Positions 37,131 to 64,000 of a stretch of DNA of 64,000 nt are shown here, one piece after another; the first letter of the stretch is position 1; every line of letters begins with the position of its first letter. Origin of the DNA: Eledone cirrhosa (Eukaryota). The position numbers and the translations under genes are program-made. The notes below the pieces were generated by a model. That model saw only the letters and a list, made by a program, of their open reading frames with translations. It did not search any database and was not told the origin of the DNA. The DNA lies in NCBI GenBank assembly GCA_964016885.1, contig OZ024744.1, forward strand, positions 115,568,001 to 115,632,000. Direction: 5' to 3'.

Positions 37131-37649
37131 TTAGATGCAGAATTTTTGGAATGTTTTACATATTTTTACTGTTCCATAAATGGATTGTACTTGTAATTTC
37201 CTAACTAGTTGTGTTCTTTCTGTTCCTGTGAAGCCCAGCTTCTCAAGATTTGTATTGAGGTAGTTACTAACATATCCCATGCCCCAATAATCACAGGTAT
37301 AATCAGGGTGGAGTATCTGCAGATTTCTCATCAGTTCTGCATAAATATTCTCCTTTTCGCTAATCTTTGATATTATATTGGCATCTGCTGGGCAGCTAAC
37401 TTCCACTACTGTGAATGCTTTCTTCTCCCTGTCCCATATCATTATATCAGGCCTATTATGCCTGCATTTTATTGGGGTTTTTACTGGAACATTCCACCAG
37501 TACTCTTTCATATTATGTACATGGATGTCTTCCACATTGCTGTAGCTTTTAATGTGTTTATTATCAGGGCTATCTTTTCTACGGATTGCATCGTACAGTG
37601 TTTTGGTCACTACGTCATACCTCATAGGTAGATAGTACCGCGATGACAT
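37131..37649 (-). pseudogene. REL endonuclease domain remnant (172-aa ORF) of the R4-like element
   Basis: HNRPDIMIWDREKKAFTVVEVSCPADANIISKISEKENIY matches the RPD..E...KY layout of REL endonucleases. The upstream frame has a stop and lacks the C-x2-C half of the zinc knuckle. Confidence 0.85.
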
Positions 37650-38107
37650 CTTTGGACAAGTGCTTATGACATGAGTGACATCTTCGATGTTAATTCTATC
37701 TCTTTTGCGAATCAGGTATTTTGTGCTGATTTTCTGTTCTTGGATTGCAAAAGCGTATCCTTAAAAGTGGGAGCAAATATAGCGGTTGTTGGTCCAAGAT
37801 AGACTACTTTCTTTATCTATATTGCTCTCACTCTGGAGCTTCCTGGCAACATATCCATGTATGATTTTTTATTGATAAGCATGCAGTTTTTCATCCATGT
37901 ATTCACTGCAGTAATGCTGGGTAATTTCCCTGGATGTGAGTTTTTGATTATCATACAAGGAATATTTCTCAAGGAGTTCCTTCCCAACTCTCATGATCTT
38001 ATCTGTCTCATGCAGATAGACTTGCTCAATAGAGGGGCTCCTACATTTGGAGATTCGTAAATGTTGTTGCAGGGATATCATGCTACACTCAACTGCTGCC
38101 TGGATGT

Positions 38108-40583
38108 TAGGCCTCCCCTGTTTCATGTAGAAGTGCTATATGTCACTACGCCTCCCCTGTTTCATGTAGAAGTGCTATATGTCACTAGGCCTGCCCTGTT
38201 TCATGTAGAAGTGGTATATGTCACTAGGTCTGCCCTGTTTCATGTAGAAGTGCTATATGTCACTAGGCCTCCCCTGTTTCATGTAGAAGTGCTATATGTC
38301 ACTAGGCCTCCCCTGTTTCATGTAGAAGTGGTATATGTCACTAGGCCTGCCCTGTTTCATGTAGAAGTGCTATATGTCACTAGGCCTCCCCTGTTTCATG
38401 TAGAAGTGGTATATGTCACTAGGCCTGCCCTGTTTCATGTAGAAGTGCTATATGTCACTAGGCCTGCCCTGTTTCATGTAGAAGTGCTATATGTCACTAG
38501 GCCTCCCCTGTTTCATGTAGAAGTGCTATATGTCACTAGGCCTCCCCTGTTTCATGTAGAAGTGGTATATGTCACTAGGCCTGCCCTGTTTCATGTAGAA
38601 GTGCTATATGTCACTAGGCCTCCCCTGTTTCATGTAGAAGTGGTATATGTCACTAGGCCTGCCCTGTTTCATGTAGAAGTGCTATATGTCACTAGACCTC
38701 CCCTGTTTCATGTAGAAGCGCTATATGTCACTAGGCCTCCCCTGTTTCATGTAGAAGTGCTATATGTCACTAGGCCTGCCCTGTTTCATGTAGAAGTGCT
38801 ATATGTCACTAGGCCTCTCCTGTTTCATGTAGAAGTGCTATATGTCACTAGGCCTGCCCTGTTTCATGTAGAAGTGCTATATGTCACTAGGCCTGCCCTG
38901 TTTCATGTAGAAGTGCTATATGTCACTAGGCCTCCCCTGTTTCATGTAGAAGTGCTATATGTCACTAGGCCTGCCCTGTTTCATATAGAAGTGCTATATG
39001 TCACTAGGCCTCCCCTGTTTCATGTAGAAGTGCTATATGTCACTAGGCCTCCCCTGTTTCATGTAGAAGTGCTATATGTCACTAGGCCTGCCCTGTTTCA
39101 TGTAGAAGTGCTATATGTCACTAGGTCTCCCCTGTTTCATGTAGAAGTGGTATATGTCACTAGGCCTCCCCTGTTTCATGTTGAAGTGGTATATGTCACT
39201 AGGTCTCCCCTGTTTCATGTAGAAGTGCTATATGTCACTAGGCCTCCCCTGTTTCATGTAGAAGCGCTATATATCACTAGGCCTCCCCTGTTTCATGTAG
39301 AAGTGCTATATATCACTAGGCCTCCCCTGTTTCATGTAGAAGTGCTATATGTCACTAGGCCTGCCCTGTTTCATGTAGAAGTGGTATATATCACTAGGCC
39401 TGCCCTGTTTCATGTAGAAGTGCTATATGTCACTAGGCCTGCCCTGTTTCATGTAGAAGTGGTATATGTCACTAGGCCTCCCCTGTTTCATGTAGAAGTG
39501 CTATATGTCACTAGGCCTCCCCTGTTTCATGTAGAAGTGCTATATGTCACTAGGCCTGCCCTGTTTCATGTAGAAGCGCTGTATGTCACTAGGCCTCCCC
39601 TGTTTCATGTAGAAGTGGTATATGTCACTAGGCCTCCCCTGTTTCATGTAGAAGTGTTATATGTCACTAGGCCTCCCCTGTTTCATGTAGAAGTGCTATA
39701 TGTCACTAGGCCACCCCTGTTTCATGTAGAAGTGGTATATGTCACTAGGCCTGCCCTGTTTCATGTAGAAGCGCTATATGTCACTAGGCCTGCCCTGTTT
39801 CATGTAGAAGTGCTATATGTCACTAGGCCTCCCCTGTTTCATGTAGAAGTGCTATATGTCACTAGGCCTCCCCTGTTTCATGTAGAAGCGCTATATGTCA
39901 CTAGGCCTCCCCTGTTTCATGTAGAAGTGCTGTATGTCACTAGGCCTCCCCTGTTTCATGTAGAAGTGCTGTATGTCACTAGGCCTCCCCTGTTTCATGT
40001 AGAAGTGCTATATGTCACTAGGCCTGCCCTGTTTCATGTAGAAGTGCTATATGTCACTAGGCCTGCCCTGTTTCATGTAGAAGTGCTATATGTCACTAGG
40101 CCTGCCCTGTTTCATGTAGAAGCGCTATATATCACTAGGCCTCCCCTGTTTCATGTAGAAGTGCTGTATGTCACTAGGCCTGCCCTGTTTCATGTAGAAG
40201 TGCTATATGTCACTAGGTCTCCCCTGTTTCATGTAGAAGCGCTATATATCACTAGGCCTCCCCTGTTTCATGTAGAAGCGCTATATGTCACTAGGCCTGC
40301 CCTGTTTCATGTAGAAGTGCTATATGTCACTAGGCCTCCCCTGTTTCATGTAGAAGTGCTATATGTCACTAGGCCTCCCCTGTTTCATGTAGAAGTGCTA
40401 TATGTCACTAGGCCTCCCCTGTTTCATGTAGAAGTGTTATATGTCACTAGGCCTGCCCTGTTTCATGTAGAAGTGCTATATGTCACTAGGCCTCCCCTGT
40501 TTCATGTAGAAGCGCTATATATCAGTGTGATATGTTAGGCCTCTCCTGTTTCATGTAGAAGCGCTATATGTCAGTGTGATATG
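38108..40583. repeat. 39-bp minisatellite (~62 copies) plus a terminal 49-bp unit, amplified from within the R4-like ORF
   Basis: Unit taggcctcccctgtttcatgtagaagtgctatatgtcac; its minus strand reads SDI*HFYMKQGRP. Element sequence is contiguous on both sides (GTGNVHI.. upstream; NIQAAVECSMISLQQHL downstream). Confidence 0.96.
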
Positions 40584-41360
40584 GACATTTCCAGTGCCAG
40601 AACTTTTGGGTTTGTAACATCAATGACTTGGCTCTTATCTAACTTCCAGTCAAGTAGTTCAAATGTTGATGTTAGGACAGGCTAAACAAACTTATTGTGG
40701 ATTTATTGTGTACAGAGATTTCAGATGACCATATTTTTCTTATTTGGATGTTATATTCCCTGGTTAATTGTTCCTTGTTACAAATTCTAACATAGAATAT
40801 GTTCTTATCTATCCCTCATCAAATACTAGTGAAACAGTTAGGCCATTGATGAAAATGTTGCTAGATTGGCTTGTAGTTTTTCCTCACTTTACAATCATAT
40901 AAGAACATTTATCTTGGCCAAACTCCATTCCTATATCTTTCGAGAACATTGTAACCAGGTGAAGGTTTTTCTTCATCCCATCTATGTTCTTGGCATAGTT
41001 TCAGGTCATCCACAAAGAAATGATGGGTTAAGTTCGTATATCTGTCCTCCTGTGAACCAATGATGTATCCTTCACATTTCTTGAGCAGAAAGGACAAGGA
41101 GTTTAATGACAAGATAAATAGTATCAGAGAGAGACTGTCTCCTTGAAATATACCCCTGTGATGATCTATTTTATCAGTGAAAATAGATTCCTCCTTCTCT
41201 GTCTTAGGATAGTGACCCTGGAAGAAGATAGTTTCTCTATGGCTCTGATAATAATGTATGGGACTTTAGAAAGTCGGAGAGCCTCTATCATCCAAGTGGG
41301 GAACAGAATTTAAATCTTTCTTCTAATCCAGCCAGACAAAGTACCTCTTATGTTGCAGCA

Positions 41361-41975
41361 TGTGCGTGTGTGTGTGTGTGTGCATGCGTACATATGTATG
41401 CATGCATATTTTCCTCAGTCCCTTAATTTCAAGTACATGTTTGACTAACCACCTTCCCTGTGACAACGTTGTAAAGAAATCGCCATAATCTCTTGTGTCA
41501 ACATTCATCCTTTAAATTGTAAAATTCTTTACAAATTTTGAAGGTGCCAGCTATCACAGCCATTTGTAGTCTATGAATTAGGGAGCTGCGTTCTTTGACC
41601 ACAAATCCAAGTTCATTATACTTTGGTCGAAGTGGGTTGGTATATAACCTGTAGCTCCAAATATGAAGCTGAGGGTGTATCTTGGATATTGGATCTATAA
41701 ACTCCTCATCAATGGTCTGTAGATGTCCTCCCTCTCCTGTATTTTTCTTACAACATTGACATCATGTGGGCAGCTGATCTCTACAACAGAGCACGTTTTC
41801 AATGTGTGGTCCCAAACAACAATATCAGGCCGGTTGTGTTTTAATTTGGTGGCAGTATTTATTTTCAGGTTCCACCAGTATTCCTTAATGCCATCTATCT
41901 CAACATATTCCTCCCTATTTGTTTTTCGTCTTCTGTAATACATTCCAAATCGTTCTAACTATGTCTTTGTTGTTC
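41361..41975 (-). mobile_element. Second, heavily 5'-truncated R4-like element (REL domain, 3' UTR, CA/TA-rich end), diverged from the first
   Basis: Minus strand: KEYWWNLKINTATKLKHNRPDIVVWDHTLKTCSVVEISCPHDVNVVRKIQEREDIY, then FGATGYI and GTFKICK, colinear with 37131-37649. TG-rich repeat at 41361-41406. Confidence 0.85.
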
Positions 41976-44078: not shown

Positions 44079-46306
44079 CCTTTGGTCAGGAATGACCATG
44101 GGATTTGCATCTAGAAAGTTCCCCTCCAGGGCACAAATCAAAGGAAAGTTGTATTTGTGGAAAACCAGCAGTCATCCATACATACCAATCTTCCCTCTCC
44201 ACATCATCAATGTTGTCCAATGGTTGATACAGCTTGGCACTAGTGATGTGATAACATACAATATATATACATTATATATTGGAAGGAGAAAACTCTTAGT
44301 GTGAAATTGGGGTTTGAAATAAATCTTTTGTGACATCAGTCCTGGAACTTTTCTGACACACCTCGTAGACTCTATATATATTGTTGTCCAAGGTAACGGC
44401 AAAGGCCAGCACAGCTTGGCACCAGTGACAATCATAATTATAGATATAACTTTGATAGGTTTCGGCCAGTATTGGCCCAGGGCATGTCTAACTTAATAGC
44501 ACCACCTGGCAACACTATATATGTATTATATATGATGTTGTCAAAGGGAAAGGTAATGTCTGATACAGCTTGGTACCAGTGACATCACAACTATATATAT
44601 ACTATATATATTATATATGATGTTGTCCAAGGGAAAGGTAATGTCTGATACAGCTTGGTACCAGTGACATCACAACTATATATATACTATATATATATAT
44701 TATATATGATGTTGTCCAAGGGAAAGGTAATGTCTGATACAGCTTGGTACCAGTGACATCACAACTATATATATACTATATATATTATATATGATGTTGT
44801 CCAAGAGAAAGGTAATGTCTGATACAGCTTGGTACCAGTGACATCACAACTATATATATACTATATATATATTATATATGATGTTGTCCAAGGGAAAGGT
44901 AATGTCTGAAACAGCTTGGTACCAGTGACATCACAACTATATATATACTATATATATATATTATATATGATGTTGTCCAAGGGAAAGGTAATGTCTGATA
45001 CAGCTTGGTACCAGTGACATCACAACTATATATATACTATATATATTATATATGATGTTGTCCAAGGGAAAGGTAATGTTTGATACAGCTTGGTACCAGT
45101 AACATCACAACTATATATATACTATATATATATATTATATATGATGTTGTCCAAGAGAAAGGTAATGTCTGATACAGCTTGGTACCAGTGACATCACAAG
45201 TATATATATACTATATATATATTATATATGATGTTGTCCAAGGCAGAGGTAATGTCTGATACAGCTTGGTACCAGTGACATCACAACTATATATATACTA
45301 TATATATTATATATGATGTTGTCCAAGGGAAAGGTAATGTCTGATACAGCTTGGTACCAGTGACATCACAACTATATATATACTATATATATTATATATG
45401 ATGTTGTCCAAGAGAAAGGTAATATCTGATACAGCTTGGTACCAGTGACATCACAACTATATATATACTATATATATTATATATGATGTTGTCCAAGAGA
45501 AAGGTAATATCTGATACAGCTTGGTACCAGTGACATCACAACTATATATATACTATATATATTATATATGATGTTGTCCAAGAGAAAGGTAATGTCTGAT
45601 ACAGCTTGGTACCAGTGACATCACAACTATATAGATACTATATATATATTATATATGATGTTGTCCAAGAGAAAGGTAATGTCTGATACAGCTTGGTACC
45701 AGTAACATCACAACTATATATATACTATATATATATATTATATATGATGTTGTCCAAGGGAAAGGTAATGTCTGATACAGCTTGGTACCAGTGACATCAC
45801 AACTATATATATACTATATATATATTATATATGATGTTGTCCAAGGGAAAGGTAATGTCTGATACAGCTTGGTACCAGTGACATCACAACTATATATATA
45901 CTATATATATTATATATGATGTTGTCCAAGGGAAAGGTAATGTCTGATACAGCTTGGTACCAGTGACATCACAACTATATATATACTATATATATTATAT
46001 ATGATGTTGTCCAAGGGACAGGTAATGTCTGATACAGCTTGGTACCAGTGACATCACAACTATATATATACTATATATATATTATATATGATGTTGTCCA
46101 AGAAAGGTAATGTCTGATACAGCTTGGTACCAGTGACATCACTACTATATATATATTATATATGATGTTGTCCAAGGGAAAGGTAATGTCTGATACAGCT
46201 TGGTACCAGTGACATCACAACCTATTTCTAGAGCTGAGTAAACTGGAGCAACATGAAATAAAGTGTGTTGCTCAAGGACACAACACATCACCAGGTCCAG
46301 GTATCG
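44079..46306 (-). mobile_element. SINE (family A-type head) with a body segment expanded into the 85-89-bp array
   Basis: The array exits directly into cctatttctagagctgagtaaactggagcaacatgaaataaagtgtgttgctcaaggacacaac, matching 49160-49220 and the reverse complement of ~43895-43950. The left part 44079-44250 leads into the same gttgtccaa...gatacagcttggcac segment. The left boundary is partly from recollection of this repeat family. Confidence 0.7.
44514..46221. repeat. 85-89-bp minisatellite (~20 copies): constant ~57-bp core plus a variable (TA)n spacer
   Basis: Core gatgttgtccaagggaaaggtaatgtctgatacagcttggtaccagtgacatcacaac followed by tatatatatactatatata(ta)nttatatat. gacatcacaa occurs at 44581, 44666 and 44755. 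Confidence 0.96.
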
Positions 46307-46474: not shown

Positions 46475-48590
46475 ACATGCTAAAATCAGTCAGTTGGAAT
46501 TTTCAGACGACATGATGTTACTTAACCCGACAGAAGGTGACTTTCAACATGCCCTTAGGCATTAGGTTTGATGCAGAGTGCTACATGACGGGAATCAAAA
46601 TTAGTGCAGCGAAAACTGAGACACTCGTCCTCTCAAAGAAGCCTGCACAGTACACTCTATATGAGAATGGAGTTCCACTGAAGCAGGTAGTGAAGTTCAA
46701 GTATCTCGGGGCCATGTTCACGGGTGATGGAAGGCAGGAGGCTGAATTAAGTGCAAGAATTGCAGGAGCTGATGTAGTAATGTACCAGCTTCACCATTTA
46801 GTAATCAGAAGGGAGATAGATGTAAATACCAAACGCGCTACCTTCAATTCAGTATTCATGCCAACCCTTACCTATGGTCATGATTCTTGGGTAATGACCG
46901 AAAGAATATGATCCCAAATATAAGGAGCTGAAATGGGTTTGGGGATAAGGTTACTTACTGAAAGATCACAACTCTGATACTATGACATGTGGTTAGAATG
47001 TCTCAGGAAAGAATCTCTGAATTGAGAGATCACAGCGCTGATACTACAGACATGTGGTTAGAATGTCTCAGGAAAGAATCTCTGAATTGAGAGATACTCT
47101 GATACTATGACATGTGTTTAGAATGTCTCAGGAAAGAATCTCTGAATTGAGAGATCACAGCTCTGATACTACAGACATGTGGTTAGAATGTCTCAGGAAA
47201 GAATCTCTGAATTGAGAGATCACAGCTCTGATACTATGTACATGTGGTTAGAATGTCTACGGAAAGAATCTCTGAATTGAGAGGTCACAGCTCTGATTCT
47301 ACAGACATGTGGTTAGAATGTCTCAGGAAAGAATCTCTGAATTGAGAGGTCACAACTCTGATACTATGGACATGTGGTTAGAATGTCTCAGGAAAGAATC
47401 TCTGAATTGAGAGATCACAGCTCTGATACTATGACATGTGGTTAGAATGTCTCAGGAAAGAATCTCTGAATTGAGAGGTCACAACTCTGATACTATGACA
47501 TGTGGTTAGGATGTCTCAGGAAAGAATCTCTGAATTGAGAGGTCACAACTCTGATACTATGACATGTGGTTAGGATGTCTCAGGAAAGAATCACTGTATT
47601 GAGAGATCACAGCTCTGATACTATGACATGTGGTTAGAATGTCTCAGGAAAGAATCTCTGAATTGAGAGATCACAACTCTGATACTATGACATGTGGTTA
47701 GAATGTCTCAGGAAAGAATCTCTGAATTGAGAGGTCACAACTCTGATACTATGACATGTGGTTAGGATGTCTCAGGAAAGAATCACTGTATTGAGAGATC
47801 ACAGCTCTGATACTATGACATGTGGTTAGAATGTCTCAGGAAAGAATCTCTGAATTGAGAGATCACAACTCTGATACTATGACATGTGGTTAGAATGTCT
47901 CAGGAAAGAATCTCTGAATTGAGAGATCACAGCTCTGATACTATGACATGTGGTTAGAATGTCTCAGGAAAGAATCTCTGAATTGAGAGATCACAGCTCT
48001 GATACTATGACATGAGGTTAGAATGTCTCAGGAAAGAATCTCTGAATTGAGAGATCACAGCTCTGATACTATGACATGTGGTTAGAATGTCTCAGGAAAG
48101 AATCTCTGAATTGAGAGATCACAGCTCTGATACTATGACATGTGGTTAGAATGTCTCAGGAAAGAATCTCTGAATTGAGAGATCACAGCTCTGATACTAT
48201 GACATGTGGTTAGAATGTCTCAGGAAAGAATCTCTGAATTGAGAGATCACAGCTCTGATACTACAGACATGTGGTTAGAATGTCTCAGGAAAGAATCTCT
48301 GAATTGAGAGGTCACAACTCTGATACTATGACATGTGGTTAGAATGTCTCAGGAATGAATCTCTGGACAAATTTTACGGGCAAAGGCAACCGGCAAGAGA
48401 CCCAGGGCTAGACCCTAACCAAGATAGTTGGATAACATCCATGAGCTTGGCTGGCCTCAGTTGGGGATTCAGCTGGATCAGTTGGTGACGGTTGCTTCTG
48501 ACAGGACCTGCTGGAAGGAGGGTTTGAGAACTCCGCCCCCATAATCCTCTCAAGAATATATGGGCAAAGAAGAATAAGAGGATGATGTCC
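46475..48590 (+). mobile_element. 5'-truncated decayed RTE-clade LINE (Expander/Rex3-like), interrupted by a 64-bp array
   Basis: QLEFSDDMMLL (FADD), GIKISAAKTE, FKYLG, PTLTYGHDSWVMTERI*SQI*GAEMG, [array], then GQILRAKATGKRPRARP*PR*LDNIHELGWPQLGI..VASDRTCW, ending in a purine-rich gaagaataagaggatgatg tail. Confidence 0.9.
46958..48365 (+). repeat. 64/65-bp minisatellite (~22 copies) amplified from the RTE ORF C-terminal region
   Basis: Unit attgagagatcacagctctgatactatgacatgtggttagaatgtctcaggaaagaatctctga. The 65-bp copy at 47341 reads IERSQL*YYGHVVRMSQERIS in frame. Confidence 0.96.
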
Positions 48591-48751
48591 TTTCCTTGTG
48601 AGTGTAATCCATGTTTTAATTATTATTAGTTGTAATGAGTATGGCAATGACAGTAGCAGTGAAGAGCCTTCTCTAATTTGGGGTGGAGGGAGTTGCGGCT
48701 ACCCAGGAAGAGAGGTATAAGTACATAGGGTAGGTGGTTGATATGTAAGGT

Positions 48752-49844: not shown

Positions 49845-49974
49845 GATGACAGATGTGAGAACAGCTACTCTTGCTACTTGTGGAAGAAAATGAAATTTTT
49901 AAATAATCAAAACTATGTTTGAAGTGGGATACATAAAATGTTTATGTAGCTCTTTTACTGACAGTCTCCCTCTT

Positions 49975-52900
49975 ATAACAGTGTCTCTCTCGTATAGCAG
50001 GCTCTCTCTCTCATATAACAGTGTCTCTCTCTCATAAAACAGTGTCTCTCTCTCATATAACAGTGTTTCTCTCATATAACCGTGTCTCGCTCTCATATAA
50101 CAGTGTCTCTCTCATATAACAGTGTCTCTCTCGTATAGCAGGCTCTCTCTCTCATATAACAGTGTCTCTCTCTCATAAAACAGTGTCTCTCTCATATAAC
50201 AGTGTCTCTCTCTCATATAACAGTGTCTCTCTCTCATATAACAGTGTCTCTCTCTCATATAAAAGTGTCTCTCTCATATAACAGTGTCTCTCTCTGATAC
50301 AGCAGTGTTTCTCTCATATAACAGTGTCTCTCTCTCATATAACAGTGTCTCTCTCATATAACCGTGTCTCGCTCTCATATAGCAGTGTCTCTCTCATATA
50401 ACAGTGTCTCTCTCATATAACAGTGTCTCTCTCATATAACAATGTCTCTCTTGTATAGCAGGCTCTCTCTCTCATATAACAGTGTCTCTCTTATATAACA
50501 GTGTCTCTCTCTCATATAACGGTGTCTAAATCTCATGTAACAGTGTCTCTCTCTCATAAAACAGTGTCTCTCTCTCATAAAACAGTGTCTCTCGCTCATA
50601 AAACAGTGTCTCTCTCATATAACAGTGTCTCACATGTAACAGTGTCTCTCTCACTCATATAACAGTGTCTCTCTCTCTCATATAACAGTGTCTCTCTCAT
50701 ATAACAGTGTCTCTCTCATATAACAGTGTCTCTCTTATATAACAGTGTCTCTCTCTCTCATATAACTTTGTCTCTCTAATGTTACAGTATCACTCTCATA
50801 TAACAGTACCTCTCTCATATAACAGTACCTCTCTCATATAACAGTGTCTCTTTCATATAACAGTGTCTCTCTCTCAGATAACAGTGTCTCTCTCATATAA
50901 CAGTGTCTCACTCTCATATAGCAGTGTCTCTCTCTCATATAACAATGTCTCTCTCATATAAAAGTGTCTCTCTCTCATATAACACTGTCTCTCTTATATA
51001 ACAGTGTCTCTCTCATATAACAGTGTCTCTCTCATATAACAATGTCTCTCTGTCATATAACAATGTCTCTCTTATATAACAGTGTCTCACTCATAAAACA
51101 GTGTCTCTCACATATAAGTGTCTCGCTCTCATATAACAGTGTCTCTCTCATATAACAGTGTCTCTCTCTCATATAACAGTGTCTCTCTCTCATATAACAG
51201 TGTCTCTCATGTAACAGTGTCTCTCTCATATAACAGAAGCTCTCTCTCATATAACAGTGTCTCTGTCTCTAATATAACAGTGTCTCTCTCGCATATAACA
51301 GTGTCTCTCTCTCATATAACAGTGTCTCTCTCTCATATAACAGTGTCTCTCTCATATAACAGTGTCTCTCTCTCATATAACAGTGTCTCTCTCTCTCATA
51401 TAACAGTGTCTCTCGCATATAACAGTGTATCTCTCTCATATAACAGTTTCTCTCTCATATAACAGTGTCTCTCTCTCATATAACAGTGTCTCTCTCATAT
51501 AACAGTGTCTCTTTCTCATATAATAGTGTGTCTGTCATATAACAGTGTCTCGCTCTCAGAAAACAGTGTCTCTCTCTCATAAAACGTTGTCTCCCTCATA
51601 TAACAGTGTCTCTCTCTCATATAACAGTGTCTCTCTTATATAACAGTGTCTCTCTCTCATATAACAGTGTCTCTCTCTCATATAACAGTGTCTCTCTCGT
51701 ATAACAGTGTCTCTCTCATATAACAGTGTCTCTCTCATATAACAGTGTCTCCCTCATATAACAGTGTCTCTCTCATATAACAGTGTCTCTCTCATATAAC
51801 AGTGCCTCTCTCTCATATTACAGTGTCTCTCTCATATAACAGTGTCTCTCTCATATAACGGTGATTCTCTCTCATATTACAGTGTCTCTCTCTCATATAA
51901 CAGTGTCTCTCTCTCATATAACAGTGTCTCTCTCATATAACAGTGTCTCTCTCTCATATAACAATGTCTCCCTTATATAACAGTGTCTCTCTCTCTCATA
52001 TAACAGTGTCTCTCATATAACAGTGTCTCTCTGTCATATAACAGTGTCTCTCTCAGATAACAGATGTCTCTCTCTCATATAACAATGTCTCCCTTATATA
52101 ACAGTGTCTCTCTCTCATATAACAGTGTCTCACTCTCATATAACAGTGTCTTTCTCATATAACAGTATCTCTCTCTCATATAACAATGTCTCTCTCTCAT
52201 ATAACAGTATCTCTCTCATATAACAGTGTCTCTCTCATATAGCAGAGTCTCTCCATATAACAGTGTCTCTTTCTCAGGTAACAGTGTCTCTCTCATATAA
52301 CAGTGTCTCCCTCTCATATAACAGTGTCCATCTCATATAACAGTGTCTCTCTCTCATATAACAGTGTCTCTCTCTAATATAACAGTGTCTCTCTCATATA
52401 ACAGTGTCTCTCTCTCATATAACAGTGTCCCTCTCTCTAATAACAGTGTCTCTCTCTCATATAACAGTGTCTCTCTCTCTTATAACAGTGTCTCTCTCAT
52501 ATAACAGTGTCTCTCACATATGACAGTATCTCTCTCTCTCTCATATAAGAGTGTCTCTCTCTCATATAACAGTGTCTCTCTCATGTAACAGTGTCTCTCT
52601 CATATAACAACAGAGTCTCTCTCGTATAACAGTGTCTCTTTCTCATATAACAGTGTCTCTCTCATATAACAGTGTTTCTGTCTCATATAACAGTGTGTCT
52701 CTCATATAACAGTGTCTCTCTCATATAACAGTGTCTCTCTCTCATATAACAGTGTCACTCTCTCATGTAAGTGTCTCTCTTATATAATAGTGTCACTCTC
52801 TCATATAACAGTCTCTCTCGTATAGCAGTCTCTCTCTCTCTCTCTCATATAAAAGTGTCTCACTCTCATATAACAGTGTCTCTCTCTCATATAACAGTGT

Positions 52901-55900
52901 CTCTCTCATATAACAGTTTCTCTCCCATATAACAGTGTCTCTCTCATATAACAGTGTCTCTCTCATATAACAGTATCTCTCTCTCATATAACAGTGTCTC
53001 TCTCTCATAACAGTGTCTCTCTCTCATATAACAGTGTCTCTCTCATATAACAGTATCTCTCTCATATAACAGTGTCTCTCTCTCATATAACAGTGTCTCT
53101 CTCACATAACAGTGTCTCTTTCTCATATAAGAGTGTCTCTCTCATATAACAGTGTCTCTCTCATATAACAGTTTCTCTCCCATATAACAGTGTCTCTCTC
53201 ATATAACAGTATCTCTCTCTCATATAACAGTGTCTCTCTCTCATAACAGTGTCTCTCTCTCATATAACAGTGTCTCTCTCATATAACAGTATCTCTCTCT
53301 CATATAACAGTGTCTCTCTCATATAACAGTATCTCTCTCTCATATAACAGTGTCTCTCTCTCATATAACAGTGTCTCTCTCACATAACAGTGTCTCTTTC
53401 TCATATAACAGTGTCTCTCTCTCATATAACAGTGTCTCTCTCATAACAGTGTCTCTCTCTCATATAACAGTGTCTCTCTCATATAACAGTATCTCTCTCT
53501 CATATAACAGTGTCTCTCTCATATAACAGTATCTCTCTCTCATATAACAGTGTCTCTCTCATATAACAGTGTCTCTCTCATATAACAGGGTCTCTCTCAT
53601 ATAACAGTGTCTCTCTCCCATATTACAGTGTCTCTCTCTCTTATAACAGTGTCTCTCTCATATAACAGTGTCTCTCTCGCATATAACAGTGTCTCTCTCT
53701 CATATAACAGTGTGTCTCTTATATAACAGTGTCTCTCTCTCGTATAACTGTGTCTCTCATATAAATGTGTCTCTCTCTCATATAACAGTTTCTCTCTCTC
53801 ATATAACGGTGTCTCTCTCTCATACAGCAGTGTCTCTCTCCTATAACAGTGTCTCTCTCTCATATAACAGTGTCTCTCTCATATAACCGTGTCTCGCTCT
53901 CATATAACAGTGTCTCTCTCATATAACAGTGTCTCTCTCATATAACAGTGTCTCTCTCATATAACAATGTCTCTCTCGTATAGCAGGCTCTCTCTCTCAT
54001 ATAACAGTGTCTCTCTTATATAACAGTGTCTCTCTCTCATATAACAGTGTCTCTCTCTCATGTAACAGTGTCTCTCTCTCATACAGCAGTGTCTCTCTCC
54101 TATAACAGTGTCTCTCTCTCATATAACAGTGTCTCTCTCATATAACCGTGTCTCGCTCTCATATAACAGTGTCTCTCTTATATAACAGTGTCTCTCTCAT
54201 ATAACAGTGTCTCCCTCATATAACAGTGTCTCTCTCATATAACAGTGCCTCTCTCTCATATTACAGTGTCTCTCTCATATAACAGTATCTCTCTCATATA
54301 ACGGTGATTCTCTCTCATATAACGGTGATTCTCTCTCATATTACAGAGTCTCTCTCTCATATAACAGTGTCTCTCTCTCATATAACAGTGTCTCTCTCAT
54401 ATAACAGTGTCTCTCTCTCATATAACAATGTCTCCCTTATATAACAGTGTCTCTCTCTCTCATATAACAGTGTCTCTCATATATAAGTGTCTCTCTGTCA
54501 TATAACAGTGTCTCTCTCAGATAACAGATGTCTCTCTCTCATATAACAATGTCTCCCTTATATAACAGTGTCTCTCTCTCATATAACAGTGTCTCACTCT
54601 CATATAACAGTGTCTTTCTCATATGACAGTATCTTTCTCATATGACAGTATCTCTCTCTCATATAACAATGTCTCTCTCTCATATAACAGTGTCTCTCTC
54701 ATATAGCAGAGTCTCTCCATATAACAGTGTCTCTTTCTCAGGTAACAGTGTCTCTCTTATATAACAGTGTCTCTCTCTAATATAACAGTGTCTCTCTCAT
54801 ATAACAGTGTCTCTCTCTCATATAACAGTGTCTCTCTCTCTAATAACAGTGTCTCTCTCTCATATAACAGTGTCTCTCTCTCTTATAACAGTGTCTCTCT
54901 CATATAACAGTGTGTCTCACATATGACAGTATCTCTCTCTCTCATATAAGAGTGTCTCTCTCTCATATAACAGTGTCTCTCTCATGTAACAGTGTCTCTC
55001 TCATATAACAACAGAGTCTCTCTCATATAACAGTGTCTCTTTCTCATATAACAGTGTCTCTCACATATAACAGTGTTTCTGTCTCATTTAACAGTGTGTC
55101 TCTCATGTAACAGTGTCTTTCTCATATAACAGTGTCTCTCTCTCATATAACAGTGTCTCTCATATAACAGTGTCTCTCTCTCATATAACAGTGTCACTCT
55201 CTCATATAACAGTCTCTCTCGTATAGCAGTCTCTCTCTCTCTCTCTCATATAAAAGTGTCTCACTCTCATATAACAGTGTCTCCCTCTCATATAACAGTG
55301 TCTCTCTCATATAACAGTTTCTCTCCCATATAACAGTGTCTCTCTCATATAACAGTGTCTCTCTCATATAACAGTATCTCTCTCTCATATAACAGTGTCT
55401 CTCTCTCATTTCAGTGTCTCTCTCTCATATAACAGTGTCTCTCTCATATACAGTATCTCTCTCATATAACAGTGTCTCTCTCACATAACAGTGTCTCTTT
55501 CTCATATAACAGTGTCTCTCTCATATAACAGTGTCTCTCTCATATAACAGTATCTCTCTCTCATATAACAGTGTCTCTCTCTCATATCAGTGTCTCTCTC
55601 TCATATAACAGTGTCTCTCTCATATAACAGTATCTCTCTCTCATATAACAGTGTCTCTCTCATATAACATTATCTCTCTCTCATATAACAGTGTCTCTCT
55701 CTCATATGACAGTGTCTCTCTCTCATATAACAGTGTCTCTCTCATAACAGTGTCTCTCTCTCATATAACAGTGTCTCTCTCATATAACAGTATCTCTCTC
55801 TCATATAACAGTGTCTCTCTCTCATATAACAGTGTCTCTCTCTCATATAACAGTGTCTCTCTCTCATATAACAGTGTCTCTCATGTAACAGTGTCTCTCT

Positions 55901-58900
55901 CATATAACAGAAGCTCTCTCTCATATAACAGTGTCTCTGTCTCTAATATAACAGTGTCTCTCTCATATAACAGTGTCTCTCTCGCATATAACAGTGTCTC
56001 TCTCTCATATAACAGTGTCTCTCTCTCATATAACAGTGTCTCTCTCATATAACAGTGTCTCTCTCTCATATAACAGTGTCTCTCTCTCTCATATAACAGT
56101 GTCTCTCTCTCATATAACAGTGTCTCTCTCGTATAACAGTGTCTCTCTCATATAACAGTGTCTCTCTCATATAACAGTGTCTCCCTCATATAACAGTGTC
56201 TCTCTCATATAACAGTGTCTCTCTCATATAACAGTGCCTCTCTCTCATATTACAGTGTCTGTCTCATATAACAGTGTCTCTCTCATATAACGGTGATTCT
56301 CTCTCATATTACAGTGTCTCTCTCTCATATAACAGTGTCTCTCTCTCATATAACAGTGTCTCTCTCATATAACAGTGTCTCTCTCTCATATAACAATGTC
56401 TCCCTTATATAACAGTGTCTCTCTCTCTCATATAACAGTGTCTCTCATATAACAGTGTCTCTCTGTCATATAACAGTGTCTCTCTCAGATAACAGATGTC
56501 TCTCTCTCATATAACAATGTCTCCCTTATATAACAGTGTCTCTCTCTCATATAACAGTGTCTCACTCTCATATAACAGTGTCTTTCTCATATAACAGTAT
56601 CTCTCTCTCATATAACAATGTCTCTCTCTCATATAACAGTATCTCTCTCATATAACAGTGTCTCTCTCATATAGCAGAGTCTCTCCATATAACAGTGTCT
56701 CTTTCTCAGGTAACAGTGTCTCTCTCATATAACAGTGTCTCCCTCTCATATAACAGTGTCTCTCTCATATAACAGTGTCTCTCTCTCATATAACAGTGTC
56801 TCTCTCTAATATAACAGTGTCTCTCTCATATAACAGTGTCTCTCTCTCATATAACAGTGTCTCTCTCTCTAATAACAGTGTCTCTCTCTCATATAACAGT
56901 GTCTCTCTCTCTTATAACAGTGTCTCTCTCATATAACAGTGTCTCTCACATATGACAGTATCTCTCTCTCTCATATAAGAGTGTCTCTCTCTCATATAAC
57001 AGTGTCTCTCTCATGTAACAGTGTCTCTCTCATATAACAACAGAGTCTCTCTCGTATAACAGTGTCTCTTTCTCATATAACAGTGTCTCTCTCATATAAC
57101 AGTGTTTCTGTCTCATATAACAGTGTCTCTCTCATATAACAGTGTCTCTCTCTCATATAACAGTGTCTCTCATATAACAGTGTCTCTCTCTCATATAACA
57201 GTGTCACTCTCTCATGTAAGTGTCTCTCTTATATAATAGTGTCACTCTCTCATATAACAGTCTCTCTCGTATAGCAGTCTCTCTCTCTCTCTCTCATATA
57301 AAAGTGTCTCACTCTCATATAACAGTGTCTCTCTCTCATATAACAGTGTCTCTCTCATATAACAGTTTCTCTCCCATATAACAGTGTCTCTCTCATATAA
57401 CAGTGTCTCTCTCATATAACAGTATCTCTCTCTCATATAACAGTGTCTCTCACTCATAACAGTGTCTCTCTCTCATATAACAGTGTCTCTCTCATATAAC
57501 AGTATCTCTCTCATATAACAGTGTCTCTCTCTCATATAACAGTGTCTCTCTCACATAACAGTGTCTCTTTCTCATATAAGAGTGTCTCTCTCATATAACA
57601 GTGTCTCTCTCATATAACAGTTTCTCTCCCATATAACAGTGTCTCTCTCATATAACAGTATCTCTCTCTCATATAACAGTGTCTCTCTCTCATAACAGTG
57701 TCTCTCTCTCATATAACAGTGTCTCTCTCATATAACAGTATCTCTCTCTCATATAACAGTGTCTCTATCATATAACAGTATCTCTCTCTCATATAACAGT
57801 GTCTCTCTCTCATATAACAGTGTCTCTCTCACATAACAGTGTCTCTTTCTCATATAACAGTGTCTCTCTCTCATATAACAGTGTCTCTCTCTCATATAAC
57901 AGTGTCTCTCTCATAACAGTGTCTCTCTCTCATATAACAGTGTCTCTCTCATATAACAGTATCTCTCTGTCATATAACAGTGTCTCTCTCATATAACAGT
58001 ATCTCTCTCTCATATAACAGTGTCTCTCTCATATAACAGTGTCTCTCTCATATAACAGTGTCTCTCTCCCATATTACAGTGTCTCTCTCTCTTATAACAG
58101 TGTCTCTCTCATATAACAGTGTCTCTCTCGCATATAACAGTGTCTCTCTCTCATATAACAGTGTGTCTCTTATATAACAGTGTCTCTCTCTCGTATAACT
58201 GTGTCTCTCATATAAACGTGTCTCTCTCTCATATAACAGTTTCTCTCTCTCATATAACAGTGTCTCTCTCTCATACAGCAGTGTCTCTCTCCTATAACAG
58301 TGTCTCTCTCTCATATAACAGTGTCTCTCTCATATAACCGTGTCTCGCTCTCATATAACAGTGTCTCTCTCATATAACAGTGTCTCTCTCATATAACAGT
58401 GTCTCTCTCATATAACAGTGTCTCTCTCATATAACAATGTCTCTCTCGTATAGCAGGCTCTCTCTCTCATATAACAGTGTCTCTCTTATATAACAGTGTC
58501 TCTCTCTCATATAACAGTGTCTCTCTCTCATGTAACAGTGTCTCTCTCTCATAAAACAGTGTCTCTCTCTCATAAAACAGTGTCTCTCTCTCATATAAAA
58601 GTGTCTCTCTCATATAACAGTGTCTCACATGTAACATTGTCTCTCTCACTCATATAACAGTGTCTCTCTCTCATATAACAGTGTCTCTCTCATATAACAG
58701 TGTCTCTTTCTCATATAATAGTGTGTCTGTCATATAACAGTGTCTCGCTCTCAGAAAACAATGTCTCTCTCTCATAAAACGCTATCTCCCTCATATAACA
58801 GTGTCTCTCTCTCATATAACACTGTCTCTCTTATATAACAGTGTCTCTCTCTCATATAACAGTGTCTCTCTCTCATATAACAGTGTCTCTCTCGTATAAC

Positions 58901-61900
58901 AGTGTCTCTCTTATATAACAGTGTCTCTCTTATATAACAGTGTCTCCCTCATATAACAGTGTCTCTCTCATATAACAGTGTCTCTCTCATATAACAGTGC
59001 CTCTCTCTCATATTACAGTGTCTCTCTCATATAACAGTGTCTCTCTCATATAACGGTGTCTCTCTCTCATATAACAGTGTCTCTCATGTAACAGTGTCTC
59101 TCTCATATAACAGAAGCTCTCTCTCATATAACAGTGTCTCTGTCTCTAATATAACAGTGTCTCTCTCATATAACAGTGTCTCTCTCGCATATAACAGTGT
59201 CTCTCTCTCATATAACAGTGTCTCTCTCTCATATAACAGTGTCTCTCTCATATAACAGTGTCTCTCTCTCATATAACAGTGTCTCTCTCTCTCATATAAC
59301 AGTCTCTCTCTCGTATAACAGTGTCTCTCTCATATAACAGTGTCTCTCTCATATAACAGTGTCTCCCTCATATAACAGTGTCTCTCTCATATAACAGTGT
59401 CTCTCTCATATAACAGTGCCTCTCTCTCATATTACAGTGTCTGTCTCATATAACAGTGTCTCTCTCATATAACGGTGATTCTCTCTCATATTACAGTGTC
59501 TCTCTCTCATATAACAGTGTCTCTCTCTCATATAACAGTGTCTCTCTCATATAACAGTGTATCTCTCTCATATAACAATGTCTCCCTTATATAACAGTGT
59601 CTCTCTCTCTCATATAACAGTGTCTCTCATATAACAGTGTCTCTCTGTCATATAACAGTGTCTCTCTCAGATAACAGATGTCTCTCTCTCATATAACAAT
59701 GTCTCCCTTATATAACAGTGTCTCTCTCTCATATAACAGTGTCTCACTCTCATATAACAGTGTCTTTCTCATATAACAGTATCTCTCTCTCATATAACAA
59801 TGTCTCTCTCTCATATAACAGTATCTCTCTCATATAACAGTGTCTCTCTCATATAGCAGAGTCTCTCCATATAACAGTGTCTCTTTCTCAGGTAACAGTG
59901 TCTCTCTCATATAACAGTGTCTCCCTCTCATATAACAGTGTCTCTCTCATATAACAGTGTCTCTCTCTCATATAACAGTGTCTCTCTCTAATATAACAGT
60001 GTCTCTCTCATATAACAGTGTCTCTCTCTCATATAACAGTGTCTCTCTCTCTAATAACAGTGTCTCTCTCTCATATAACAGTGTCTCTCTCTCTTATAAC
60101 AGTGTCTCTCTCATATAACAGTGTCTCTCACATATGACAGTATCTCTCTCTCTCATATAAGAGTGTCTCTCTCTCATATAACAGTGTCTCTCTCATGTAA
60201 CAGTGTCTCTCTCATATAACAACAGAGTCTCTCTCGTATAACAGTGTCTCTTTCTCATATAACAGTGTCTCTCTCATATAACAGTGTTTCTGTCTCATAT
60301 AACAGTGTCTCTCTCATATAACAGTGTCTCTCTCTCATATAACAGTGTCTCTCATATAACAGTGTCTCTCTCTCATATAACAGTGTCACTCTCTCATGTA
60401 AGTGTCTCTCTTATATAATAGTGTCACTCTCTCATATAACAGTCTCTCTCGTATAGCAGTCTCTCTCTCTCTCTCTCTCATATAAAAGTGTCTCACTCTC
60501 ATATAACAGTGTCTCTCTCTCATATAACAGTGTCTCTCTCATATAACAGTTTCTCTCCCATATAACAGTGTCTCTCTCATATAACAGTGTCTCTCTCATA
60601 TAACAGTATCTCTCTCTCATATAACAGTGTCTCTCTCTCATAACAGTGTCTCTCTCTCATATAACAGTGTCTCTCTCATATAACAGTATCTCTCTCATAT
60701 AACAGTGTCTCTCTCTCATATAACAGTGTCTCTCTCACATAACAGTGTCTCTTTCTCATATAAGAGTGTCTCTCTCATATAACAGTGTCTCTCTCATATA
60801 ACAGTTTCTCTCCCATATAACAGTGTCTCTCTCATATAACAGTATCTCTCTCTCATATAACAGTGTCTCTCTCTCATAACAGTGTCTCTCTCTCATATAA
60901 CAGTGTCTCTCTCATATAACAGTATCTCTCTCTCATATAACAGTGTCTCTATCATATAACAGTATCTCTCTCTCATATAACAGTGTCTCTCTCTCATATA
61001 ACAGTGTCTCTCTCACATAACAGTGTCTCTTTCTCATATAACAGTGTCTCTCTCTCATATAACAGTGTCTCTCTCTCATATAACAGTGTCTCTCTCATAA
61101 CAGTGTCTCTCTCTCATATAACAGTGTCTCTCTCATATAACAGTATCTCTCTGTCATATAACAGTGTCTCTCTCATATAACAGTATCTCTCTCTCATATA
61201 ACAGTGTCTCTCTCATATAACAGTGTCTCTCTCATATAACAGTGTCTCTCTCCCATATTACAGTGTCTCTCTCATATAACAGTGTCTCTCTCGCATATAA
61301 CAGTGTCTCTCTCTCATATAACAGTGTGTCTCTTATATAACAGTGTCTCTCTCTCGTATAACTGTGTCTCTCATATAAATGTGTCTCTCTCTCATATAAC
61401 AGTTTCTCTCTCTCATATAACAGTGTCTCTCTCTCATACAGCAGTGTCTCTCTCCTATAACAGTGTCTCTCTCTCATATAACAGTGTCTCTCTCATATAA
61501 CCGTGTCTCGCTCTCATATAACAGTGTCTCTCTCATATAACAGTGTCTCTCTCATATAACAGTGTCTCTCTCATATAACAGTGTCTCTCTCATATAACAA
61601 TGTCTCTCTCGTATAGCAGGCTCTCTCTCTCATATAACAGTGTCTCTCTCATATAACAGTGTCTCTCTCATATAACAGTTTCTCTCCCATATAACAGTGT
61701 CTCTCTCATATAACAGTATCTCTCTCTCATATAACAGTGTCTCTCTCTCATAACAGTGTCTCTCTCTCATATAACAGTGTCTCTCTCATATAACAGTATC
61801 TCTCTCTCATATAACAGTGTCTCTATCATATAACAGTATCTCTCTCTCATATAACAGTGTCTCTCTCTCATATAACAGTGTCTCTCTCACATAACAGTGT

Positions 61901-64000
61901 CTCTTTCTCATATAACAGTGTCTCTCTCTCATATAACAGTGTCTCTCTCTCATATAACAGTGTCTCTCTCATAACAGTGTCTCTCTCTCATATAACAGTG
62001 TCTCTCTCATATAACAGTATCTCTCTGTCATATAACAGTGTCTCTCTCATATAACAGTATCTCTCTCTCATATAACAGTGTCTCTCTCATATAACAGTGT
62101 CTCTCTCATATAACAGTGTCTCTCTCCCATATTACAGTGTCTCTCTCTCTTATAACAGTGTCTCTCTCATATAACAGTGTCTCTCTCGCATATAACAGTG
62201 TCTCTCTCTCATATAACAGTGTGTCTCTTATATAACAGTGTCTCTCTCTCGTATAACTGTGTCTCTCATATAAATGTGTCTCTCTCTCATATAACAGTTT
62301 CTCTCTCTCATATAACAGTGTCTCTCTCTCATACAGCAGTGTCTCTCTCCTATAACAGTGTCTCTCTCTCATATAACAGTGTCTCTCTCATATAACCGTG
62401 TCTCGCTCTCATATAACAGTGTCTCTCTCATATAACAGTGTCTCTCTCATATAACAGTGTCTCTCTCATATAACAGTGTCTCTCTCATATAACAATGTCT
62501 CTCTCGTATAGCAGGCTCTCTCTCTCATATAACAGTGTCTCTCTTATATAACAGTGTCTCTCTCTCATATAACAGTGTCTCTCTCTCATGTAACAGTGTC
62601 TCTCTCTCATAAAACAGTGTCTCTCTCTCATAAAACAGTGTCTCTCTCTCATATAAAAGTGTCTCTCTCATATAACAGTGTCTCACATGTAACATTGTCT
62701 CTCTCACTCATATAACAGTGTCTCTCTCTCATATAACAGTGTCTCTCTCATATAACAGTGTCTCTTTCTCATATAATAGTGTGTCTGTCATATAACAGTG
62801 TCTCGCTCTCAGAAAACAATGTCTCTCTCTCATAAAACGCTATCTCCCTCATATAACAGTGTCTCTCTCTCATATAACACTGTCTCTCTTATATAACAGT
62901 GTCTCTCTCTCATATAACAGTGTCTCTCTCTCATATAACAGTGTCTCTCTCGTATAACAGTGTCTCTCTTATATAACAGTGTCTCTCTCATATAACAGTG
63001 TCTCCCTCATATAACAGTGTCTCTCTCATATAACAGTGTCTCTCTCATATAACAGTGCCTCTCTCTCATATTACAGTGTCTCTCTCATATAACAGTGTCT
63101 CTCTCATATAACGGTGTCTCTCTCTCATATAACAGTGTCTCTCATGTAACAGTGTCTCTCTCATATAACAGAAGCTCTCTCTCATATAACAGTGTCTCTG
63201 TCTCTAATATAACAGTGTCTCTCTCATATAACAGTGTCTCTCTCGCATATAACAGTGTCTCTCTCTCATATAACAGTGTCTCTCTCTCATATAACAGTGT
63301 CTCTCTCATATAACAGTGTCTCTCTCTCATATAACAGTGTCTCTCTCTCTCATATAACAGTGTCTCTCTCTCATATAACAGTGTCTCTCTCGTATAACAG
63401 TGTCTCTCTCATATAACAGTGTCTCTCTCATATAACAGTGTCTCCCTCATATAACAGTGTCTCTCTCATATAACAGTGTCTCTCTCATATAACAGTGCCT
63501 CTCTCTCATATTACAGTGTCTGTCTCATATAACAGTGTCTCTCTCATATAACGGTGATTCTCTCTCATATTACAGTGTCTCTCTCTCATATAACAGTGTC
63601 TCTCTCTCATATAACAGTGTCTCTCTCATATACAGTGTCTCTCTCTCATATAACAATGTCTCCCTTATATAACAGTGTCTCTCTCTCTCATATAACAGTG
63701 TCTCTCATATAACAGTGTCTCTCTGTCATATAACAGTGTCTCTCTCAGATAACAGATGTCTCTCTCTCATATAACAATGTCTCCCTTATATAACAGTGTC
63801 TCTCTCTCATATAACAGTGTCTCACTCTCATATAACAGTGTCTTTCTCATATAACAGTATCTCTCTCTCATATAACAATGTCTCTCTCTCATATAACAGT
63901 ATCTCTCTCATATAACAGTGTCTCTCTCATATAGCAGAGTCTCTCCATATAACAGTGTCTCTTTCTCAGGTAACAGTGTCTCTCTCATATAACAGTGTCT
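49975..64000. repeat. CT-rich satellite with 19/21-bp (17-25-bp) monomers and kb-scale higher-order blocks; continues beyond the window end
   Basis: Monomer is catataacagtg followed by a variable t(ct)n tract. Rare variants recur in the same order, e.g. cagaagctctct at ~51234, 55908, 59111 and 63169. Confidence 0.97.

Follow-up and report, generated by a model that had tools for sequence, protein, structure and literature searches.

A 39-bp minisatellite apparently born within a dead LINE of Eledone cirrhosa, with a single 49-bp flank-to-flank junction at its edge

The window analysed here is a stretch of 64,000 nucleotides from Eledone cirrhosa (assembly GCA_964016885.1, contig OZ024744.1, positions 115,568,001 to 115,632,000), about 89% of which is tandem repeat. 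One of its arrays lies within a decayed LINE copy that is coded on the minus strand and bordered on both sides by TG-rich simple sequence. The features of the locus, in window coordinates, are as follows.

37131..38107, minus strand: 3' half of the LINE, with the linker, a damaged zinc knuckle and a restriction-like endonuclease, placed by tblastn of relatives
38061..40538, plus strand: stop-free frame of 825 codons with a 13-residue repeat, opposite to LINE coding and incidental
38104..38107, plus strand: left partner of the 49-bp junction, ATG and one T
38108..40486, plus strand: 61 units of 39 bp, each a 38-nt core followed by C, with a mean pairwise difference of 4.4%
40487..40535, plus strand: the single 49-bp unit, a 38-nt core followed by an 11-nt spacer at 40525-40535
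40536..40573, plus strand: the last core, running on into the unique right flank
40574..40583, plus strand: right-flank 10-mer that recurs in the 49-bp spacer, with ATG at 40581-40583
40584..41361, minus strand: reverse transcriptase (RT) and post-RT region, with frameshifts, belonging to the same LINE copy and placed by tblastn of relatives

When split on a constant anchor, the array consists of 63 cores of 38 nt. TRF finds 62.0 copies at period 39, with 95% matches, and 2.0 copies at period 49. The original prediction, of about 62 39-mers with one 49-bp period at the end, was thus borne out: 61 of the units measure 39 bp, one measures 49 bp, and a final core follows. A 9-mer that it had used to mark the last copies, gcgctatat, is indeed present at 40512 and 40561, but it occurs at seven further sites in the array (nine in total) and is therefore not specific to them. 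Higher-order structure in the array is weak, the longest repeated run being five units (P=0.037). Only one of the six reading frames is free of stops across the array, and a 13-codon unit is expected to be stop-free about 54% of the time per frame; the 825-codon frame is incidental, is no sign of a gene, and could be mis-annotated as one.

The host element is recognizable from both of its parts. With the ORF at 37131-37760 as query, 47 relatives were found, and the RT region was covered by tblastn at 40592-41361. Pfam RVT_1 matches 40909-41265 with an E value of 0.0085, too weak to reach the curated cut-off, and matches all four full-length colinear relatives at about 1e-22 to 1e-25. The downstream ORF (37131-37760) contains RHNRPD...EVSCP, which we take to be a PD-type endonuclease motif (PD-D/E pattern), and the best PDB matches of one relative, P0017, are R2 proteins (E 3e-28). 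Judged by the RT, the PD-type endonuclease and the R2 matches, the host is an RLE-type non-LTR retrotransposon. Assignment to the R4/Dong clade is likely, given the abundance of Dong-R4 in octopus annotations. In RLE-type elements a CCHC zinc knuckle (CX2-3CX7-8HX4C) sits between the RT and the RLE (PMC5678591). This knuckle is seen in the alignment of relatives; in the present copy HX4C alone is left, a gap relative to P0048 takes the place of the first Cys pair, and no full CCHC pattern occurs in the 3' half (37131-38107). At an E value of 0.1, no N-terminal zinc finger or Myb Pfam family was found in the four full-length relatives, and the LINE copy itself ends near 41361. Because alignments to relatives stop by 41361, beside a (TG)n tract, the copy appears to be 5'-truncated.

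The LINE copy is dead. There are in-frame stops at 37871 and 37763, the RT part changes frame, and the coding frame is interrupted by a stop in 48 of the 63 cores (46 TAG and 2 TAA), so the element is not, as had been proposed, an open reading frame split by the array. Selection for an in-frame 39-bp unit was considered and rejected, because those 48 cores carry a stop. The repeated segment had also been equated with the D..RLY...GGRGL region that follows the RT core. The D-I-x-R-F-Y part of that region is present in the unit; the GGRG part is damaged, being five codons short of the relatives, 43 of 47 of which have a GG-x-G-hydrophobic motif. This damage is common to all cores, and would therefore be older than the amplification.

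With the array masked, ten out of ten relatives displayed (of 47) align on both sides of it, running from up to 41361 to 40592 or 40583, resuming at 38105 or 38090, and extending to about 37134 with 39-43% identity. One of the relatives, P0008, skips 26 residues at the position of the array. When the array is excised in silico, DI*RFY pairs with the family DIDRFY, in the frame of the downstream ORF and with a gap of five codons; the same colinearity is found against P0048, a protein of Octopus bimaculoides, at 46% identity over 285 columns. Read on the minus strand, the last core gives D-I-stop-R-F-Y-M-K, which corresponds to the family motif D-x-D-R-[LF]-Y. The original prediction had held that the array would be a foreign insertion if the family consensus lacked this segment. 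What is found after in silico removal is protein colinearity across the site, and since the element is colinear with its relatives, the repeated segment did not come in as a foreign insertion. Against the arrival of a foreign minisatellite stand the family motif, which the core encodes at the colinear position, and the core 13-mer, which has no other occurrence in the 64-kb window outside the array. We regard such an origin, ruled out here at the protein level, as extremely improbable, and birth of the array in situ, out of the LINE's own post-RT sequence, as almost certain from these alignments.

The 78 residues that follow the array gave 11 matches, three of them unrelated, in a full scan, and zero matches in a word-indexed search. 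On inspection P0049, P0051 and P0057 proved to be unrelated repeat proteins, and they were removed before motifs were counted. Among viral_contigs there were 133 pattern matches and no relatives. Metagenome loci share 66-82% identity with the element in short stretches, and blastn never reaches the repeated segment in them.

The junction of the 49-bp unit, tcagtgtgatatgttaggcc, was confirmed in the sequence. The first 10 bases of its spacer correspond to right flank and the last one, a T, to left flank: bases 40525-40534 are identical to 40574-40583, a match with a chance probability of about 1e-6, and the last spacer base together with the shared ATG (40532-40534) matches the left flank at 38104-38107. 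The proposal that the right flank is linked here to the left flank by an ATG common to both thus stands. In 61 of 61 short junctions a single C takes the place of the spacer. Microhomology amounts to 3 bp at period 49 and to 1 bp or none at period 39, and at least 3 bp is expected in local element DNA with a probability of 0.063 per junction over periods of 30-70. The 3-bp ATG is compatible with microhomology-mediated duplication and is not proof of that mechanism.

We suggest the following account, which we hold tentatively and whose ordered chain, taken as a whole, is a little less than evenly likely. The native segment would have been duplicated with a 49-bp period through the 3-base ATG microhomology and would have grown to three or more 49-bp units; a 39-bp variant would then have arisen by a small (10-bp) deletion and a one-base change, and would have filled the array by unequal exchange or gene conversion, as the four variant combinations described below may indicate. 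One 49-bp junction would have survived at the edge, where exchange across the length difference should be rarer. We propose no function for the array, which would reflect neutral turnover in repeat-rich DNA. The three-copy stage is needed because a deletion in a two-copy array would erase the only 49-bp junction. An attraction of this chain is that a deletion through the 49-bp junction would leave breakpoints 1-10 nt apart without coincidence. The 49-bp junction itself is probably an early relic, and it most likely dates from a stage of one to three copies, since a flank-to-flank join is easiest when both flanks are close together.

The step from 49 to 39 bp is less simple than had been proposed. 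The short unit is 10 bp shorter; however, it is not the long unit minus 10 bp, because the 49-bp spacer holds no C. Any 10-nt deletion of the present spacer leaves at least one mismatch, and the best single one leaves exactly one, which falls to zero if the first spacer base had once been C. A direct 39-bp duplication needs one extra base change as well, with the same proviso. Since the deletion and the direct duplication yield an identical junction, sequence alone cannot order the two junction types. Of the proposed birth order, therefore, the in-place origin and the flank-to-flank ATG junction hold, and the succession of 49 by 39 bp does not follow from them. Against the 49-first chain, 6.3% of local junctions reach 3 bp of microhomology by chance alone, and the duplication did not use a longer imperfect repeat that is available at 36-bp spacing.

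The base that separates the two junction types can be read on the coding strand, where the short junction gives Ser-Asp and both flank and spacer give Thr-Asp. Among 58 motif matches in a set of 74 proteins, from which three unrelated matches were left out and in which many near-duplicates were kept, the residue at this position is Ser in 42, Gly in 13, Thr in 2 and Asn in 1. In distant loci, all eight codons have G in the middle, the base matching the junction C, and six of six Ser codons are AGY, although only Ser or Gly could fit the search pattern and the eight loci include a near-identical pair. P0048 has Asn at this polarising position and is undecisive. P0078, which is 63% identical to P0048 and is the nearest relative with the position as in the window, has Thr like the window flank, so the G of flank and spacer may be a subfamily state. 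The outcome is mixed, and on these comparisons it leans towards the G being old for this LINE subfamily. If instead the junction C is old, as the distant loci (8/8) would have it, the 49-bp spacer would have been recopied after the 39-bp junction formed, which counts against the 49-first chain.

The cores at the edge are not as frozen as the junction. Both edge cores, units 62 and 63, carry C at core position 27, in an Arg codon, where 53 of the 61 39-mers have T; the eight 39-mers with C27 cluster toward the right edge (P=0.03), and Arg stands at that motif position in 45 of the 58 motif matches. This edge pattern, together with odd-length ends in two other arrays of the window, favours the 49-first chain, as does the report that array ends homogenise less (PMC5615363). 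However, A35 of unit 62 recurs in five interior units, where it goes together with C27 (P=0.014). Unit 19 shares T9 with unit 63, and at positions 35 and 39 each of the four pairwise combinations is seen. Edge variants that are shared with the interior imply that the edge cores were exchanged or mutated recurrently, which leaves the junction as the only relic. Two of 38 positions distinguish unit 62 from unit 63, taken as no more than the array mean of 4.4%, so there is no clock evidence for an older 49-bp pair. The notion of a preserved intermediate thus applies to the 49-bp junction and fails for cores 62 and 63, whose variants are held in common with interior 39-mers.

Survival of that junction was explored with a toy model in which units were gained and lost, starting from one 39-bp and one 49-bp junction. 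Without suppression, 2-11 of the 600 runs at each setting ended with just one 49-bp junction, in terminal position, an outcome rare enough to weigh against the 49-first chain; when events including the 49-bp junction were assumed to be five-fold rarer, 29-138 of 600 did so. In the model, then, an early origin of the 49-bp junction needs suppressed exchange across the length difference, and such suppression, though plausible, is an assumption.

Both junctions could instead be siblings, made at once by a single replication or repair event with two template switches, after which the 39-bp junction was amplified. The product would run left flank, core, 39-bp junction, core, 49-bp junction, core, right flank. 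We consider both the event and this product somewhat unlikely, though they have several points in their favour. Each junction can be built from single-copy sequence, the left breakpoints lie within about 5 nt of each other, the unseen three-copy 49-bp stage becomes unnecessary, and the spacer lies within a 6-bp hairpin. Iterative annealing and synthesis are described as yielding templated insertions (PMC7407515), and overlapping duplications with different microhomology arms recur within the same 10-bp window in yeast (PMC13167724), which favours siblings over the 49-first chain. On the other hand, the tracts reported for Pol-theta are 1-25 nt, with a mean of 3-6 nt (PMC7407515), shorter than the 38-48 nt needed, and suppressed exchange at the edge is needed here too. 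Templating of the junction C by the hairpin stays speculative: a one-base match has a one-in-four chance and is no evidence for it. A 39-bp duplication that came first, with the 49-bp junction added later, seems to us quite unlikely. Two routes could have led there: the same ATG could have mediated an 88-bp duplication of a two-copy locus, which then lost one 39-bp unit, or a separate 49-bp duplication on a single-copy allele could have been joined to the array by unequal crossover. The short junction reads the family Ser-Asp (Ser in 42/58, with AGY in 6/6 distant Ser codons), and an old C would make the 39-bp junction a clean duplication with 1-bp microhomology and the G of spacer and flank a later change; moreover, a late origin gives a single terminal copy in the toy model without further assumptions. 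Against this, P0078 has Thr like the window flank, so that the G may be a subfamily state, the AGY evidence comes from a pattern forcing Ser or Gly with two of eight loci near-identical, and a second rare duplication would be required with both breakpoints within 10 nt of those of the first.

Very unlikely, in our view, is that the 49-bp unit came about late, as an accident at the edge of a grown array, by a slip on ATATG and a subsequent loss of three bases, or that it is an assembly error. The five bases ATATG are indeed common to the repeat unit and the right flank, but a late accident would match the left flank exactly at the junction only by coincidence, and a random sequencing error would not copy 10 flank bases. 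Sequencing-run contigs bear on this reading and on the 49-first chain. Seven runs were considered, none of them with half of the window words, and four of the seven were compared, over 40470-41340 only; X2 and X3 are one sample, possibly the source of the assembly. Array contigs have a depth of 108 in X2 and 271 in X3, against 3-7 alongside, and the X3 array contig lacks 10 bases at 40525 and has T->C at 40535; these two differences make up the 39-bp junction. By bin arithmetic, no contig covers the 49-bp spacer in X2 or X3, both of which hold the 39-mer, a point in favour of an accident or error and against the 49-first chain. This absence is weak evidence, because contigs drop rare words and variants, and the runs hold 0.20-0.24 of window words. 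One low-depth contig in X2/X3 starts at 40549 (bin arithmetic) and belongs to this locus or to another LINE copy. Many diverged copies of the RT-containing LINE family occur in all four runs mapped, and no one-, two- or few-copy alleles were found among the mapped run contigs. X1 (word share 0.11) has no depth at 40470-40559 in spite of its abundant copies of the LINE family; the locus may be missing from this run, which was not counted. X5 (RAD reads) has zero depth over the array.

Related processes are known from other systems. Ahmed and Liang (2012, PMC3389668) list 7,276 human minisatellites derived from transposable elements, 601 of them tied to L1, and flanking repeats or incomplete end units explain the start of just 6% of such tandem repeats. 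The present array, like theirs, is an internal segment amplified locally in tandem, and it falls within their filters (unit of at least 20 bp, at least two copies, GC of at least 40%, here 0.461 over 38001-40000, 95% unit similarity, and overlap with the element of at least one period, judged here by protein colinearity). It differs in having 63 cores, an RLE-type LINE as host and two junction lengths, and in having no 5-20 bp flanking direct repeat. In the model of Haber and Louis a single-copy segment between short shared words duplicates and may expand (PMC3389668, PMC13167724), and the latter source describes overlapping duplications with different arms and microhomology-mediated duplication as an origin of tandem repeats. 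A short word shared by the flanks of a duplicated single-copy segment is seen here too. Yet the 3-bp arm (P=0.063) belongs to the 49-bp unit that was not amplified, and the 39-bp unit, which was amplified, shows 0-1 bp together with an additional base change, so that flanking direct repeats of 5-10 bp, as that model is given in PMC3389668, are absent (3 bp at period 49, 1 bp or none at period 39). The slipped-strand model of Taylor and Breden expects an incomplete terminal unit (PMC3389668); the last core does have 38 of 39 bases, yet the odd unit here is longer, not shorter.

Poor homogenisation of array ends was described by McAllister and Werren (1999, as cited in PMC5615363). As in their case, a divergent end unit persists, but here it is of another length and exposes a flank-to-flank junction. 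For maize CRM1TR and CRM4TR a multi-step junction origin and growth by gene conversion have been proposed (PMC3648361), and SVA VNTRs acquire new repeat-unit lengths through deletion (PMC4432496). Sequential building of junctions and indels that shift unit length are features that these share with our preferred chain; they are, by these accounts, LTR or composite elements with longer units or microhomologies, in contrast to the coding region of a single dead LINE. Dong-R4 is the dominant RLE-type LINE group annotated in octopus (PMC13282606, PMC8967140), and the closest named protein is from Octopus bimaculoides, although the present copy is truncated and degenerate. Satellites derived from ORF2 and microhomology-mediated duplication are reviewed in PMC9659126. 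A literature search, with most subscription journals outside it, returned no account of this locus or of octopus LINE-born minisatellites. Minisatellites derived from transposable elements, microhomology-mediated duplication and poorly homogenised ends are all already published, and the locus is real but ordinary. Alone, the array is one neutral repeat in a dead transposon, and its value is that of a worked example, in which useful microhomology is lacking from the amplified 39-bp unit and present in the lone 49-bp unit at the edge. Should junctions often be rewritten by a second event ahead of amplification, the true first step would escape standard surveys.

The window contains three arrays that are fully bounded and have some 20 copies or more, and all three have an odd-length end. 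Odd end units therefore look common here and the 49-bp end is less surprising, and a systematic survey is suggested. As a general rule, it is unlikely that minisatellites born from transposable elements in this genome routinely keep the first junction or an older unit length at the edge while the amplified unit is usually a second-step derivative. If true, array edges across the genome would preserve, like fossils, how minisatellites were born, and the rule would explain why most such repeats lack flanking microhomology.

Further observations were made on the other arrays. A 64-bp array at 46959-48365 has 65-bp units in five of its first six intervals, and it follows an RT-associated ORF (score 0.95-0.96, with one cluster listed, in which 14% of members have RVT_1). 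The last unit of an 85-bp array is 76 bp long. Finally, a 73-bp unit shows a weak match to an RTE-like ORF, the best of six frames, with an uncorrected P of 0.02.

The 39-bp minisatellite that lies within the dead RLE-type LINE gives rise to two features of its own, and part of another such element is found nearby:

38061-40538 (+), a stop-free frame of 825 codons that the repeated 39-bp unit creates on the strand opposite the coding one
40519-40533, a hairpin with a 6-bp stem and a 3-nt loop, formed by the end of the core of unit 62 and the spacer of this single 49-bp unit
41510-41928 (-), a second fragment, the endonuclease end of a related RLE-type LINE, with 41-53% identity to the proteins that match the dead LINE

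An annotation would probably take the long frame, wrongly, for a repeat protein. Reverse-complemented, the spacer arm of the hairpin would provide the single C of the 39-bp junction, and one base is no evidence for this. The endonuclease-end fragment sits upstream of the truncated LINE copy.

Further tandem arrays are present in the window:

1-36352, a 73/69-bp array with some 500 units, its left edge beyond the window
44518-46221, an 85-89-bp array of about 20 copies
46959-48365, a 64-bp array of 22 copies, inside a second LINE-like element (46516-48600)
49964-64000, a CT-rich satellite of 19-21-bp units, about 700 copies, continuing past the window end

An RT-associated ORF directly precedes the 64-bp array, and the element in which the array lies is, judging by its motifs, presumably an RTE. 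Units of 65 bp occupy five of the first six intervals, and in one of them the reading frame is kept through Y-G-H-V-V-R-M. KGRLYDVCV and LHGSETW, which we take to be the post-RT motif of RTE-type LINEs, can be read in frames of the 73/69-bp array; when this array was compared with the ORF at 46516, only a weak match was seen (P=0.02, best of 6 frames, uncorrected). The last unit of the 85-89-bp array (46116) is 76 bp long, another edge unit of deviating length, like the 49-bp unit, and is similar to the left-flank junction; the extra TA-rich block is missing from this unit. Dispersed sequence related to this array is found at 44213-44420.
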